From Eledone cirrhosa (taxonomy: Eukaryota): a stretch of DNA of 64,000 nt. Position 1 is the stretch's first letter. Each line of letters starts with the position of its first letter. Both the position numbers and the translations under genes were made by a program. This document shows positions 4,025 to 54,067 of this stretch, one piece after another. The stretch is taken from NCBI GenBank assembly GCA_964016885.1, contig OZ024753.1, forward strand, positions 4,650,001-4,714,000, in the 5' to 3' direction. The notes beneath the pieces are model-generated. The model was given only the letters and a program-made list of their open reading frames with translations, searched no databases and was not told the origin of the DNA.

Positions 4025-4550
4025 GCGGTGGATTGGCAGTATCGGTAGAGGGTCGGACGCCATGCTTTCCAGCATATTTACGTCCCTTAACGATCTGAGT
4101 TCAAATCCCGCCGAGGTTGACTTTGCCTTACATCCTTACGGGGTCGATAAAATAAAGTATCAGTAATGCACTGGGTAATTGCTGGCCTTGTGCCTAAAGT
4201 AGAAACAATTATTATTATATCGGGGTCGATAAAATAAAGTACCAGTAATACACTGGGATAATTGCTGGCCTTGTTCCAAAAGTAGAAACAATTATTATCA
4301 TTATTATTATTATTATTATTATTAAGGGCGGTGGTTTGGCAGTATAGGTAGAGCATCAGACACCATACTTTGCAGCATAGGAGTTATGGCCCTTTACGTT
4401 CTAAATTAAAATCCTACCAGGTTAACTTTGCCTTTCATCCTTATGGGGTCGATGAAATACACACCAGTAACGTACTGGGGTCAATTTAATCGACTTTTCC
4501 CTCCCACAAAATTTCTGGCCTTGTGCCTATATAAAGAAACCATTATTATT
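4025..4550 (+). mobile_element. Cluster of tRNA-derived SINE family A: full copy 4025-4218, duplicated 3' part 4220-4292, diverged copy 4325-4550
   Basis: A box TGGCAGTATCGG, B box GAGTTCAAATCC, central GCCTT(T/A)CATCCTTACGGGGTCGATAAAATAAAGTA(C/T)CAG, tail GTAGAAACAATT(ATT)n. Confidence 0.9.
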
Positions 4551-12356: not shown

Positions 12357-13224
12357 GTGTATGTAAGTCTGTGTGTATTGAATAAGGATCAATGAAATAT
12401 GTATATACAGATGATCGAACAGATGCATGGTGAGCTACTAAATATCATTCTTGGTTTCCAGTAGGGATATAAACGAAAATGTAATACGCTTACTTAGGGA
12501 ATTATGTTTTTATCCTTTTATTATTTTCATGCTTTGAATTATTGGACTGCGTCTTTGATGAGGCATCAACACGAATACTTCTGTAGATTCCACCAACAAT
12601 ATTCGTTATTCTAGTCTGGTCCTTGTTCTATCAATCCATATTTATGTGCGCTCGTATAATTTGATCCTGACGAGGAGTTATGTAATTCATAATATGACAC
12701 TAAATAATGTTCCTTAGATAATTGTTGCGAAAGTTTAATGAGATGTACGGAGCAAAGATCAGATGTGGCGGAAACCACATATGCGTATCGCATACTAAAA
12801 TATGTATATATATATATATATGACTATATATAGAGAGAGAGGGATGGAGAAGGAGAGAGAGAGGGGAGAGAGAGGTGTAAAAACCGACCGCGGTAGGATA
12901 CAAGCTGAAACCACTTGACTCCGGGTTCTGGATTTGACATATCTCTATACCTACACTGCATCTTCCCATGAATTTTTGAGTACTCCCAATATTAGTGGTC
13001 TCCTCGGTCTCTGCCCTACAGACTCACTGTGTTTGTGTGTGTGTGTCTGTATATGCGTGTGTGCGTATGCTCATATATCCATGTAAAAATTGCACTTTAC
13101 TTCGATCTCGAATATGTGGAGTAGGGCGGAAAGAATACGGAATTACTTAATCCCACGTTCTGACGACGGCCAGTTCACCTTCTTCAACGATACCTATAGA
13201 GAAATAAAGACGTACATATACAGA

Positions 13225-13600
13225 ATAATTGTTTCTACTTTCGGCACAAGGCCAGCAATGCACCAGTACATTACTAGTACTTTATTTTATCGACCCCGTA
13301 AGGACGTATATATACAGAATAATTGTTTATATTTTAGGCACAAGACCAGCAATTACCCAGTACATTACTGGTACTTTATTTTATCGACCCCGTAAGGATG
13401 TACATATACAGAATAATTGTTTCTATGTTAGGCACAAGGCCAGCAATTACCCAGTACATTACTGGTACTTTATTTTATCGACCCCGTAAGGATGAAAGTT
13501 AACCTCGACGGGATTTGAACTCAGATCATAAAGGGACGTAACTCTATGCTTCAAAGCATGGTGTCCGACTCTCTACCGATACTGCCAATCCACCGCCCTT
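13225..13600 (-). mobile_element. SINE family A full copy with the 3' half triplicated (~92-bp period)
   Basis: Reverse A/B boxes at 13511-13590; three ATAATTGTTT...TTTTATCGACCCCGTAAGGA units; ATATACAGA at both flanks (possible TSD). Confidence 0.9.
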
Positions 13601-18813: not shown

Positions 18814-19577
18814 TGTTTTTATTTCTTTATATTCGAACAAGAATAATTTTTCTGATAGCAGAATGTCATTAATAATGTAATAGAGTCTAGCATAGCTTTT
18901 GTAGAGGACAAACCTGTATGAGGCATTAAACACCCAAGTGTGTTCAATAGTAGAAGAGAAATATTTCAAGGACATGATGCAATTATCGATGGTCTTACGC
19001 AATAAGGATATTGGCTATCACATCGAAAACAGAGGACCTAAGTTCATGTATAATCTGTAGCTCTTTGGTAGGAATGAACCTCAAGTTGACTCACTGGTAA
19101 AAGCTGCCCACTGGTGTTGCCGGGAATTGGAGTGGTATTTCATATTGCAAGCTCTGAATATGAAGAGTTGTAAGCATGTACATAGCGTATTTTCTATGTA
19201 ACAAAGCGCGTTAAATCTAACTGTTTTATATGATAGTATGTTTTACTTGTAGTATTTACCAGCAAAAGGCTTCGAAATTTTTTATAAATTTTCCTTAATA
19301 TATAAATTGAATAATCGGTATCTCTCTCTCTATATATATATTTTTTACCAATATATATATATATATATTGTTATACTTGGGGAGGGTCATATTTGCATAA
19401 TATTGCCAGAATTAATAACAGAACACACTCACTGTTTGGTTGGTTTTCGCTTCTCGCTGTCTTTTATATCTGCGATCTAACTTACTCGGTCCTCAATGTT
19501 GCCATTGACTGACCGACGGTCAAAAATAATACAGATACAATATAGACACAAACACATATATATAGTTTACATAATTT

Positions 19578-19906: not shown

Positions 19907-20227
19907 TCATAGGTCAGTGTTGTTTGTTTGGGTGTTGTTGTTCCACTCATTCTTTCTGTTTAGCTTTGGTCTTCTAATTTCTATTTCACTGGCCTCTCTG
20001 ATTTGCCTATCTGCTGGGTCATTCCTATGTTTAGATATTATTCTAATTTCTATGTTGTCTATGTTACCGTCATGTTGTTGTCTAGCATGTTCGTATAGTA
20101 CTGACCCGTTTTTTCGTCCTTTTAGTTCCCCCCAGTGTTGGTCTATCCTTTCACCTATGCTATGAGCTGTCTCACCTATGTATGTTGTTGTCATGTTTCT
20201 GCAAGTACCTCTTATGCTATATATATA
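19907..20227 (-). pseudogene. GIY-YIG endonuclease domain of a Penelope-like retroelement (5'-truncated, no RT)
   Basis: YIYSIRGTCRNMTTTYIGETAHSIGERIDQH...SVLYEHARQQH...RQIREASEIEIRRPKLNRKNE fits IY-x-YIGET, R..xH, R.I.E and P.LN of PLE endonucleases. Confidence 0.9.
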
Positions 20228-20454
20228 GAGAGAGAGAGGGAGAGAAAGAGATAGAGAGAGAGAGAGAGATACCGAGATATATATATGTATATATATATAT
20301 TAGAATTGGTGCTCTAAAATAACGATATATATATAAATGTATATATAGTGTATTTTGTAATACACTGTATGCTTAATTAAAAACATTTTGAAGACCTTAC
20401 GCTATTGTTTTAAAGTAGTGACTGTCACTTCTCTTTTCAGCAAACAAAGGGAGA

Positions 20455-20502
20455 TAAGCTGACAGATCTCTGTTTCGTACTGTTGGTACTCCTCAGAGCT
20501 TA
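20455..20502 (-). ncRNA. Type I hammerhead ribozyme (canonical)
   Basis: UAAGCU-CUGAGGA-GUAC(CAACA)GUAC-GAA-ACAGA(GA)UCUGU-C^AGCUUA; stem I extends ~20 bp past an internal loop (20434-20525); predicted cut between 20461 and 20460. Confidence 0.92.
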
Positions 20503-20771
20503 ACACTCCCTTTGCCTGCTGAAAATTATGAATGTTTGATTCTTATAGAATTCCAGTAATAATCAGGAACTGTTTATACAGAGCGGTTGCCGGTCCAGCA
20601 AAAATTGAAAATTAGAATTGGTGCTCTGAAATAGCGATATATATATGAATGTATATATAGTGTATTTGCAATACACTGTATGCTTAATTAAAAGCATATT
20701 GAAGACCTTACGCTATTGTTTTAAAGTAGTGACTATGGCACGTACTTCTTTCTTCAGCAAACAAAGGGAGA

Positions 20772-20819
20772 TAAGCTGATAGATCTCTGTTTCGTACTGT
20801 TGGTACTCCTCAGAGCTTA
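20772..20819 (-). ncRNA. Type I hammerhead ribozyme, second tandem copy
   Basis: Same fold; AUC cleavage triplet creates a C-A mismatch in stem III. Confidence 0.85.
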
Positions 20820-21082
20820 ACACTCCCTTTGACTGCTGAAAATTATGAATATTGGAAAATACACTATATATACATTCATATATATACTCTATATATACAT
20901 TCATGTATATATCATATATATATATACACTATATATACATTCATATATATATCGCTATTTCAGAGCACCAATTCTAATTTTCAATTTTTGCTGGACCGGC
21001 AACCGCTCTGTATAATCAGTTCCTGATTATTACTGGAATTCTATAAGAATCCAACATTCATAATTTTCAGTAGGCAAAGTGG

Positions 21083-21130
21083 TAAACTCTGAAGAGTACC
21101 AACAGTACGAAACAGAGGTATGTCAGCTTA
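21083..21130 (+). ncRNA. Type I hammerhead ribozyme, inverted copy
   Basis: UAAACU-CUGAAGA-GUAC(CAACA)GUAC-GAA-ACA(GAGGUA)UGU-C^AGCUUA. Confidence 0.85.
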
Positions 21131-21244
21131 TCTCCCTTTGTTTTCTACTTTAAAACAATAGCGTAAGGTCTTCAAAATGCTTCTAATAAAGCATAGTGTA
21201 TTTCAAAATACACTATATATATACATTCATATATATATATATAT

Positions 21245-21431
21245 GAACAGATTCAGGACCCCGACGGCTGAGCTCCGGCCGTGTCGAGTTCGGATCTAGC
21301 TGTCGAAACGGCCGGAGCTTAGAGGTCAGCCGTCGGGGTCCTGAATCGTTTCATATTACCCACTCTACTGCCCCAACTATCGAGTACTCTGGTGGGTTCT
21401 GGCTTAGCTGGTTTTTACCAGACTCTGCCTG
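21245..21431 (+). mobile_element. Family B element with fold-back
   Basis: ATTCAGGACCCCGACGGCTG.../...CAGCCGTCGGGGTCCTGAAT palindrome plus the family tail into (TA)n. Confidence 0.8.
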
Positions 21432-36561: not shown

Positions 36562-36691
36562 AAGCGTAATTTAGAAAGGTGCACTTTTAGAATGTATATC
36601 TATTAAAGAATTACTGTGAAATCTATATATCACACGTTAGAAAGTTTTCTTCCGACTAAAGGTAGCAGGATAATATGCGTATTTATATATA

Positions 36692-36730
<39 letters not shown>

Positions 36731-36848
36731 GTATATATAGTATATTTGGCAATATGCTGCATGCTTAATTAAAAACATTTTGAAGACCTTACGCTATTGT
36801 TTTAAAGTAGTGACTATGTCACTTCTTTTTTCAACAAGCAAAGGGAGA

Positions 36849-36896
36849 TAAGCTGACATATCTCTGTTTCATACTGTTGATAATCATCAGAGCTTA
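36849..36896 (-). ncRNA. Type I hammerhead (stem II weakened)
   Basis: UAAGCU-CUGAUGA-UUAU(CAACA)GUAU-GAA-ACA(GAGAUA)UGU-C^AGCUUA; U-U at the stem II base. Confidence 0.75.
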
Positions 36897-37366
36897 GCAC
36901 TCGCCTTTGTCTGTTGAAAATTCTAAATGTTGGATTCTTATAGAATTCCAGTAATAATCAAGAACTGCTAATACAGAGCGGTTGCCGGTCCAGCAAACAT
37001 TAAAAATTAGAATTGGTGCTATGAAATAGCGATGCATATATGAATGTATATATAGTATATTTGGCAATATACTGTATGCTTAATTAAAAACATTTATCTC
37101 CCTTTGTTTGTTGAAAATCGAAGTAAGTAACATAGTCACTACTTTAAAACAATATCGTAAGGTCTTCAAAAGGTTTTTAATTAAGCATACAGTATATTGC
37201 CAAATATACTATATATGCATTCATATATACATCGCTATTTCAGAGCACCAATTCTAATTTTCAATTTTTGCTGGACCGGCAACCGCTTTGTATAATCAGT
37301 TCCTGATTATTACTGGAATTCTATAAGAATCCAACATCCATAATTTTCAGCAGGCAAAAGGAGTGT

Positions 37367-37414
37367 TAAGCTCTGATGATTACCAAGAGTATGAAACAGG
37401 GGTATGTCAGTTTA
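37367..37414 (+). ncRNA. Type I hammerhead (stem II base U-U)
   Basis: UAAGCU-CUGAUGA-UUAC(CAAGA)GUAU-GAA-ACA(GGGGUA)UGU-C^AGUUUA. Confidence 0.78.
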
Positions 37415-40251
37415 TCTCCCTTTGTTTGTTGAAATCAGAAGTAAGTGACATAGTCACTACTTTAAAACAATAGCGGAAGGTCTTCAAAATGTTTTTAATT
37501 AAGCATACAGTATATTGCCAAATATACTATATATACATTCATATATACATCGCTATTTCAGAGCACCAATTCTAATATATATATATATATACTGTCGGAA
37601 ATTTTTATTTTACTACCTGAATATACGTCAAATTTGTTTTCTTTTTCTAGTATCTAGTCAAGAGAAAAATTGGTTTTCTATCAGAGAAGTCAGACAGTTT
37701 TAGTGGTTGGTGAAATGAAGTTTGTTGACATCTAGGCCATTACTCGTGCAATATAGTTCAGTGTAAAGGGAATCGGTTGCAAATGTAAAATGAGTAACAA
37801 AATATATCTTCAAGATGAATATAATTTTACTTTCATTAACTATAATGCACGTTTCGTTGGAAGAACATAGTACTGTTGTATTTATAATTCATTCTACCAA
37901 AAAGGATATACGTAGGCCAAATACAGCGAATCTTGCATTGTATATGGCGAAACGAGTTTAAACTGCCTTACATTCACACCGGTGACAGTAAATATTATCA
38001 ACTCATTTCTATAAACACACATATTTCGGGAGTGTTTATGTTTCGATCGATCTGCTAGAAACAAGAGGGAAATTTCCCTCGAATCCCATTTTCTCCATCG
38101 TAAAACGGAAATACTATACAATGTGTTTCTGAGAAATAAAATCAAGACAAGATGCTATCGACATGAATGTATTCGGACCAAGGATCTACACAATAAGCTC
38201 AGTACATCGACAATGTTGTTATTGCTTTCTCATGTGTAATTGGATGCGTTCAAGATCCTCAAAGTTTTATTTTATAGAACTGGTAAGATTAAAGCAGTAG
38301 ATATTCAGTCTCAACATCTTAGGTACAATACTACAAATATAGGACACATTTTGACGTTCATATCTTTTCTCGGGGGTGTTTACATATATTATTTGCAATG
38401 TTTCAAACTGTGAAAGGAATCTAAAAACATTGGTATTTTGCATATAATTTATTCTCCTTAACTCTACTTACATCTTTGAAATAATAAATCACCTTTAACG
38501 TTAAAGATACTGGGGAATGCATCAATCTATACGAGAAGAATATGGCTATCATAAATAAGATAATGATAGCCCAGAAAACAATGCTCTGTGTACACAATTT
38601 GTCACTTAAGAAATAGATCTTAACTCGTTCTCAACACTTAAATTCTGTTCTCCCCGTTTTGGAGAAAAATAATTTCAGAGCACAATGTTACTTTTCCACA
38701 TTTACGTTATTGTTATTTTATAACTTCTAATCTCGAATGACATTTCTATTTGTTTTTCTTTGGTAATATATCACTCTTATTGTTAGCCCAAATCGTGTTA
38801 CAATACTTGACATGTTTCTCACATTTTAGCTCATCTATCATTGAAAGTGTTATGGTAAACATGATGCAAAATTACATAATGTATAATTTAGTTGAGATAT
38901 CACGCTAAGTTAATCTTTAAAACTAAAGAACACTGAAATCTTTCCTCTTATGTTACGATATACATATGGTTACTGTTAAACTCAGTATAACTTTTCGGTG
39001 TTCGCTATTCAGCAATACTGCATATGTTTAGATAAATTATAAATTAATGTTTACAATTTTCATTTTCAATTAAGAATACCTTTGTTTAGACAACACATGT
39101 TACGAAAGTAGCATCAAACGCCATACATTTGCTTCTACATAGTATTAGTGAAATGCATCTCGTAATAATAAATTTATTACACTGATACAAGACCCCCACG
39201 TAGTTAGGGGAATACTGATAATTAAATCATCTGGTATTATTTCTCTAACCAGGCAAACACGCAAGGCTATTTGAAGAAAGAAGAACTGAAGCGGTAGTGA
39301 GGGACAATTAAATATTATTCATTTACTGTCATCAAGCCTGTTGTTAGCAACACGCCATTATTATGCAATCATAATTTTCGATCTGGGCAAGTCTACGAGT
39401 GATTCGCTATAATTTTCACGTTATGCCACAGCAATAATATACACGATATTAAAATGTTATAGATCCATTTGTTTCTATGTATACATGTATATATGCATGT
39501 ATATAAGCACATGTGCATTATTGTGTGTATCTATGTATGTATACATGAATGTATGTATATATGTATATATGTATGTACGCATATATGTATGTATGTATCT
39601 AGCCATTAGAAAAAGCAAAATGAATTATACACCTTTGGTTACAGATACAAAACAGGACACAATGCGCTACTGGTTATTGAACCTGTAAGCTGGTGATTAC
39701 AAGCTGAACACCTAAACCACAAAGTCGATATAGAGAATACGATGACTAACATAATTCAACGGAAATGCCATATGATTGATACATCATTGTGTTTATTGCG
39801 GCCCTTCTGTACACCCATAACAATCATTTTGATCCGAAATTTGAATATAATATAAACTTCCAAGCTGGATTACATATGTTGTCTATATAGGATGTAGTTT
39901 ATTACAATGTATATGCAATTACTGAAAACGGTTATGTGGTCGTAGCTGCGAAAGTTTACATAACACTATAAACTAGCTCTCCTTATTTCGTGAATAGAAC
40001 ATGGTACGTTATTTTAATGAATATAGAAGATTTATGCTCGATATAAAGCCTGAAACACTTTCATTGTGATCTAATATTAATAGGTACTCAACTTATTATA
40101 TTAGACATGCAGTCACTATATACTGATGTATATCAATCTACCTACATTGACCACACCTTTTTATAATGAAAACATGTACAATTACGTTGACTCTATTCAC
40201 TATTGTTTTCGATTTTTATATGTCAATTTTCACTCAAGCATATATATATAT

Positions 40252-53516: not shown

Positions 53517-53647
53517 AGGACCGTTCGGATCTAGCCGTTGAAATGGCCGGAGCTTAGCCGTGGGGGTCCTAACTCTTTTCCTATTACCCTAAGTATCGAG
53601 TACTCTGGTACGTTATGGTCCACCTGGTTTCTTACCTTCTTTGTTTT
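53517..53647 (+). mobile_element. Family B element, 5'-truncated
   Basis: GTTCGGATCTAGCCGTTGAAATGGCCGGAGCTTAGCCGTGGGGGTCC...GAGTACTCTGGT...TGGTCCACCTGGTT, then (TA)n. Confidence 0.8.
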
Positions 53648-53815: not shown

Positions 53816-54067
53816 GTGCGTGTATGTGTGTGTGTGTGTTTGTTTGTGTCTGTGTGTCTGTGTGTTAATCCCCGGGTCTAATACTATTATCTTGTAAAAT
53901 TTGAATTGATTTAGTCGAGCTGTTTGAGAATGCATGAGGAAAAGACAGACAAATAAGTTTATATAGAGATAAACAATACGTATATTCATATGTTTATCGC
54001 TATTTCGGAGTACCAATACATACACACTCACTCACACACACACACAAACCCCCCCCCCCCCACACAT

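Follow-up and report, generated by a model that had tools for sequence, protein, structure and literature searches.

Two head-to-head insertions of a 317-nt repeat

The window, i.e., the whole 64-kb stretch of DNA that we analysed, is AT-rich (31.8% GC) with abundant microsatellites, and it holds two insertions, locus A (20299–21238) and locus B (36717–37576), each of which is a head-to-head pair of partial tandem arrays of one non-coding 317-nt monomer (Table 1). We defined this monomer cut to cut from the long arm of locus A and aligned every arm to it; the resulting maps confirmed the head-to-head layout that a first-pass annotation had proposed for both loci, with the 5′ ends of the arms meeting at the centre and the 3′ ends pointing outward into (TA)n (four of four ends). 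The long arms end at a site referred to here as L, and the short, inverted arms at a site referred to as S. No TSD was readable at either locus, all four ends lying in (TA)n. The TTT at 37093–37095 fits both arms of locus B, so the start of its long arm, earlier placed about 3 nt past the predicted hammerhead cut, has been corrected to 2–4 nt past it. At locus A there are three S motifs within 20864–20944, and the extra copies at its centre could have arisen through repeated re-initiation at S or through slippage.

Table 1. Coordinates of the arms, hammerhead motifs, tail and target tracts of the two insertions, numbered from the first nucleotide of the window.
Feature	Coordinates	Strand	Description
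Locus A, long arm	20299..20856	-	monomer positions 239 to 167; 1.78 monomers; 3′ end at L with tail, then (TA)n
Type I hammerhead, locus A long arm (sole intact copy)	20451..20505	-	CUGAGGA core at 20496; predicted cut after 20461
Second hammerhead, locus A long arm	20768..20822	-	one mismatch beside the cleavage triplet
Locus A, centre	20853..20923	+	two additional 25–30-nt S-motif copies
Locus A, short (inverted) arm	20924..21238	+	monomer positions 113 to 141; 28-nt internal deletion; 3′ end at S, then (TA)n
Hammerhead, locus A short arm	21080..21134	+	helices I and III partly broken
(TA)n target left of locus B	36680..36724		
Locus B, short (inverted) arm	36717..37095	-	1.19 monomers; monomer positions 79/81 to 141; 3′ end at S, without tail
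Type I hammerhead, locus B short arm	36846..36900	-	core at 36890; predicted cut after 36855; helix II closing pair U-U, helix III decayed
Locus B, long arm	37093..37576	+	1.52 monomers; monomer positions 3/4 to 167; 3′ end at L
Type I hammerhead, locus B long arm	37363..37417	+	core at 37373; predicted cut after 37408; helix II closing pair U-U, helix III decayed
One-sided tail of locus B	37541..37576	+	S to L; 26–35 nt depending on the placement of S
(TA)n target right of locus B	37576..37591		

The monomer and its hammerhead motifs

The monomer has a GC content of 35% and no evident coding capacity, its longest stop-free frame on either strand being 49 aa; neither insertion contains an ORF, and the arm maps of loci A and B show no LTR pair. 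Its computed circular fold is far more stable than those of 100 shuffled sequences (MFE −79.8 versus −53.8 ± 5.7 kcal/mol, z = −4.5). A type I hammerhead motif is present in all five of the units that span its region, with the core and all three helices intact in one of the five; a motif scan recovered three of these five copies, and an Rfam scan of the window at the gathering score gave 0 matches. The intact copy, with its core at 20496, has a helix I of 6 bp, a helix II of 4 bp and a short, near-palindromic helix III, and computed folding gave −8.5 kcal/mol for its active fold versus −9.7 kcal/mol for a competing fold. Two consecutive hammerheads, which mark a retrozyme as "active" in Li 2026 when both are complete, occur in the long arm of locus A only, one of them with the triplet-adjacent mismatch, and locus B has one per arm, both of which have a U10.1–U11.1 mismatch in helix II. 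Given this shared mismatch, the earlier proposal of working hammerheads on both strands is not supported. The repeat has sequence features by which animal non-LTR retrozymes are recognized (a tandem unit of ~150–400 nt, GC below 45–50%, a canonical hammerhead motif and no coding sequence); the defining feature of an autonomous PLE, an RT and GIY-YIG ORF between pLTRs, was found at neither insertion.

Copies in public sequence data

We compared the monomer (20400–20716) at 85% likeness with four of the eight public runs listed, namely X1, X4, X5 and X6. The search for runs turned up no RNA data set with the repeat, a result that says nothing about its expression. There were matches in 3687 contigs of X1, which may be the window's own sample, and in 27 contigs of X4 and 12 of X5, these being two other organisms. 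Helix II is of interest in these copies, as its closing pair G10.1–C11.1 is replaced by A–U in some: the two substitutions were seen in 35 and 21 contigs of X1, and both are present in X4 and X5, each at one-contig depth. This covariation suggests, on the basis of sequence, that the ribozyme is or was under selection. In addition, a variant with a perfectly palindromic helix III is frequent among the other copies.

In these contigs and reads, (TA)n junctions at both L and S recur in other copies, among 24 of 342 loose ends. The largest of the six X1 loose ends listed is L (20611), with 46 contigs and a (TA)n consensus, and the raw DNA (RAD) reads of X6 have a (TA)n loose end at S (20637) with 427 reads, which count reads and not loci (agreement 0.63); 96% of the X6 reads continue into dissimilar sequence. 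The joint between tandem monomers was also found in DNA (111 reads, 24 starts). Among 15 of 20 joints, at least eight in other copies link opposite strands at scattered positions, the joint table giving no head or tail orientation; of the 13 non-edge ends of the opposite-strand joints listed, three lie in the S zone and none within 10 nt of the cut. In one X5 contig, an antisense arm with its end at position 171 is fused to monomer sequence of the sense strand, i.e., a head-to-head arrangement in another organism.

Further observations concern possible relatives. At position ~172 (window 20606), 946 molecules of run X6 end and 1264 reads exit the monomer into mixed sequence, which may represent the natural 5′ limit of the unit immediately past the tail, or else a related but diverged family. 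Elsewhere in the window, at 53969–54017 (+), a 49-nt stretch matches monomer positions 110–158 (S and most of the tail) at 82% and is followed by a CA/TA microsatellite; judging from this match, it is probably an old remnant of this family or of a related one. A search with the 21-nt tail motif gave 0 loci in viral sequences and nine in metagenomes, all of which we rejected as relatives, the matches being limited to 24 nt or TA-rich and hence attributable to chance.

Neighbouring elements

Locus A adjoins, across a (TA)n/(GA)n tract, a 5′-truncated PLE that ends in a GIY-YIG endonuclease frame (19907–20217, minus strand; 3′ UTR to ~19370). This frame had an Atlas score of 0.95, the nearest cluster being mostly Mollusca, and a Pfam search of the fragment gave no significant family. 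The PLE fragment has a decayed hammerhead-like core with a bulged PLE-type helix II at ~19612–19580, and its 3′ end likewise lies in (TA)n. As it is of a different family and its 3′ region has no match to the monomer, we rejected it as the direct parent of the 317-nt repeat; no autonomous PLE that shares the monomer was found in the window. A (TA)n-(GA)n tract ending in one shared short unique motif flanks the fragment in inverted orientation (19315–19345 and 20218–20277), and is possibly the fragment's own inverted 3′ stump.

To the right of locus A, next to (TA)n, is a 108-nt, very stable hairpin (21245–21352; −78 kcal/mol) that is MITE-like or a fold-back and has diverged relatives at 1105–1150, 1283–1337 and 53523–53580. 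Repeated units of 83–94 nt occur at 4139–4298, 13205–13492 and similar places, and presumably resemble the 3′ part of an octopus SINE-like repeat. Together with the Atlas neighbours of the GIY-YIG fragment, this resemblance tentatively places the animal-like window in a mollusc, probably an octopus.

The 3′ ends, the tail and the target sites

Site L lies at monomer position 166–167 and is the long-arm 3′ end at both loci (20300 and 37575), in agreement to the base. Site S lies inside a 10-nt TA run at monomer positions 132–141, the longest alternating TA run of the monomer. The earlier claim that the two loci share both outer breakpoints is thus exact for L, and for S good to ~10 nt, as the ends float within the TA run. 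Both start sites had also been described as UA-rich, which is true of S; L has just 2 alternating nt in common with (TA)n, and (UA)n homology at both sites was therefore rejected. S and L are 26–35 nt apart, and the interval forms a one-sided tail at two of two loci. Under uniform breakpoints the chance of this agreement is ~0.01 for L alone and 0.0003 for L and S together, the figure for S being overstated, as this site coincides with the longest TA run in the monomer. As for the target, positions no more than 3 nt from a TA run of at least 10 nt make up 6.8% of the window, so that two insertions would both fall in such runs with a probability of ~0.005, counted per insertion rather than per end since the two ends of one insertion are not independent.

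These features have counterparts in the literature on PLEs. PLE insertions are described as partial tandems, often with an adjacent inverted 5′-truncated copy, a tail of 30–40 bp that is frequently confined to one end, and a preference for (TA)n (Craig 2021, PMC8557442); a 31-bp tail was found on one of two inverted pLTRs, head-to-head being the commonest arrangement (Arkhipova 2013, PMC3846280), and a curation guide describes inverted pLTRs with short extensions (PMC8969392). The biochemical account is that of the Anolis PLE protein, which nicks AT-rich DNA on both strands, extends each of them and initiates RT internally at two adjacent sites, the interval between them being the tail (Frangieh 2024, PMC11167929). 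Two preferred start sites on the RNA, as previously proposed, are supported by the 3′ ends at L and S and match this published mechanism and tail (PMC11167929, PMC8557442, PMC3846280), and the proposed priming on both target strands, likewise supported, would be the published PLE mechanism and no new one. Because the agreement extends feature by feature, the first-pass annotation had in effect rediscovered the PLE signature; by our comparison, the tail, inversion and (TA)n anatomy is a known pattern.

Probable PLE-type integration of a non-coding repeat

With good confidence, we interpret loci A and B as independent insertions of a high-copy, non-coding 317-nt hammerhead repeat family, an animal non-LTR retrozyme (effectively a parasite made up of a pLTR only) for which an EN+ PLE supplied the integrating enzyme. 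By extrapolation from the characterised Anolis PLE, the PLE protein would bind a multimeric retrozyme transcript, its GIY-YIG domain would nick both strands of the AT-rich target, and each nick would prime internal reverse transcription, at L in one case and at S in the other. Both cDNAs would extend toward the RNA 5′ end, stop at variable points and be joined via 1–3 nt of microhomology, so that a long, tailed arm would lie on one side and a tail-less arm in inverted orientation opposite it; the 5′ ends would not be set by hammerhead cleavage.

The likeness to EN+ PLEs (Penelope/Poseidon, Neptune, Naiad) covers the partial tandems, the inverted 5′-truncated head-to-head copy, the one-ended tail, the (TA)n or AT-rich target, a type I hammerhead upstream of the start sites, and opposite-strand hammerheads a few hundred bp apart; hammerheads on opposite strands 100–700 bp apart had already been noted in a paper that also describes the canonical metazoan type I hammerhead, to which the motif of the 317-nt unit corresponds (PMC4209133). 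It could accordingly be asked whether the arrays are heavily truncated ends of an autonomous PLE, i.e., pLTR stumps joined by template jumps, with no self-standing non-autonomous family. The pLTR-like anatomy of the monomer, with its hammerhead upstream of the tail, would suit such an origin, as would the many X6 reads that leave the monomer at ~172 and the fact that 5′-truncated partial tandems are described as typical of PLEs (PMC8557442, PMC8969392). However, the four internal tail-to-next-monomer junctions are all identical and in register, unlike variably truncated coding copies; coding sequence is absent from both insertions; the hammerhead is of the canonical retrozyme type, without the bulge after A9 of the minimal PLE type; and the matching X1 contigs number in the thousands. 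We consider this origin unlikely, although it is the alternative that fares best.

Somewhat less probable still is that both arms start at L and that S is secondary, either because slippage or a microhomology deletion involving the internal TA run and the adjoining (TA)n removed the tail, or because S was used merely through pairing with the nicked (TA)n. The position of S in the longest TA run means that S ends could indeed come from target pairing or later tail loss, and the S end cannot be placed to the base; yet the S–L distance is that of the PLE tail, which two RT start sites produced in vitro, there is exactly one tailed and one tail-less end at each of the two loci, and the additional S motifs in the middle of locus A hint that S was used more than once. 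Priming at S with the help of such pairing is also in keeping with PLE-type integration from two start sites.

Twin priming in LINE-1 offers a further comparison. There, both target strands prime cDNA and an inverted 5′ piece is joined by microhomology; L1 inverts an upstream, non-overlapping segment, and its first priming is on poly(A). The 317-nt family would resemble LINE-1 in its both-strand priming and microhomology-joined inverted piece, but both of its arms begin close to one another on the unit, each at one of two fixed internal positions, and poly(A) is absent.

The template and the 5′ ends

The earlier model had one cDNA running off a self-cleaved 5′ end. In its full form, a circular or cleaved RNA made by the hammerhead would serve as template in a rolling-circle reverse transcription, and there are observations in its favour: the long arm of locus B begins close to the predicted cut, the monomer is strongly self-paired in computed folds, the helix II covariation in relatives suggests present or former selection on the ribozyme, and animal retrozymes form circRNAs (PMC7229834). 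Against this, the long arm of locus B is the only one of the four in-window 5′ ends near a predicted cut (p ~0.09–0.13), none of the 13 non-edge inversion-joint ends listed for other copies lies near the cleavage site, where clustering had been predicted, and locus B was inserted with both of its ribozymes sharing a broken helix II pair. In addition, the hammerhead is dispensable for PLE insertion in vitro: in the Anolis system, mutating the hammerhead left insertion normal, and none of the RNA reads ended at the cut (Frangieh 2024, PMC11167929). As the near-cut start is unrepeated among the joint ends listed for other copies, we rejected ribozyme cleavage as what sets the 5′ ends.

The composition of the arms bears on the form of the template. 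Neighbouring monomers inside one arm differ by 4.8–5.1%, which age alone could give, and the long and short forms of a 4-nt indel variant occur inside both loci. From this indel polymorphism, the sequences point to a mixed or multimeric template; recurrent slippage is also possible, the indel being a short tandem. Of the circular or multimeric RNA proposed earlier, the multimeric form is retained and a single circular monomer is disfavoured, since one circle would be expected to give neither the within-arm differences nor the indel in both loci unless slippage recurred. Taken together, these points make the run-off model improbable.

Two insertions or one duplication

Diagnostic bases favour the view that the loci are two separate insertions rather than a simple duplication. 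Among 303 four-way columns, six group the arms by locus (five distinct positions), none by arm type and two crosswise, a small test with p = 0.03, or 0.06 counting distinct positions. The 1-kb flanks of the two loci, where a duplication of one locus might have been apparent, are unrelated and have only simple repeats in common. Compared with each other, the long arm of locus A is 82 nt longer and the short arm of locus B ~30 nt longer; as these differences run in opposite directions, neither centre can be derived from the other by one deletion. On these three grounds we rejected simple duplication. Divergence within a locus (2.2–12%) overlaps that between loci (3.6–15%), and arm-to-arm conversion could mimic the signal, so that independence is favoured by the sequence comparison and not proven. 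A ready-made inverted composite that was duplicated or moved whole, its unstable centre deleted differently at each locus and its arms homogenised by conversion, would account for the identical overall layout and outer ends and for the overlapping divergence, but is very improbable in view of the diagnostic sites, flanks and centres just described and of the many different inversion joints in other copies.

Relation to known retrozymes

The family is close to the animal non-LTR retrozymes as described by Cervera & de la Pena 2020 (PMC7229834) and Li, Clavereau & Pollet 2026 (bioRxiv 10.64898/2026.07.22.740005; Li 2026): these share with it a tandem monomer of ~300 nt with 35% GC that is strongly self-paired, non-coding, of high copy number and found alongside PLEs, and a canonical type I hammerhead with a short, near-palindromic helix III. 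It differs in that its arrays are short (1.1–1.8 monomers), inverted and bear PLE tails. PLEs were called "a strong candidate" mover of animal non-LTR retrozymes (PMC7229834), a hypothesis repeated in a review (PMC11722881); Li 2026 links animal retrozymes to pLTRs by co-occurrence or distribution and by phylogeny without settling the mechanism; and butterflies have been mentioned as having short non-autonomous Penelope elements (PMC6685494). In the main texts, the word "tail" is absent from Li 2026 and "inverted" from PMC7229834, and term searches of the two found neither inverted arms nor a tail. Our search, which covered the main texts of openly readable papers, found no report of a tail-plus-inversion scar on a retrozyme, or of the 317-nt family.

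The 317-nt repeat is a new member of the retrozymes with a known, PLE-type integration. The layout alone is textbook PLE; what is new is the occurrence of the PLE-specific tail, the inversion and the (TA)n targeting on an ORF-less tandem unit, which supports the proposed mobilisation of animal non-LTR retrozymes by PLE enzymes. Insertion scars are more direct evidence on the enzyme that moves retrozymes than co-occurrence or phylogeny. We lean slightly toward the broader proposition that a canonical-hammerhead retrozyme carries the PLE tail-plus-inversion footprint genome-wide, with a PLE protein acting in trans on multimeric RNA and each of the two protomers of a dimer starting at its own site, one at L and the other at S, on opposite strands. 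If true, this would be mechanistic, and not just phylogenetic, evidence that retrozymes are reverse transcribed and integrated in trans by a PLE protein. In that case the 317-nt repeat would serve as a minimal, naturally occurring cis-substrate on which to study PLE mobilisation, and its thousands of copies would allow the pairing rule to be counted. Its value lies in this use as a test system: the copies could show whether inverted pairs as a rule have one end with a tail and one without, and whether the template was circular or a linear multimer.
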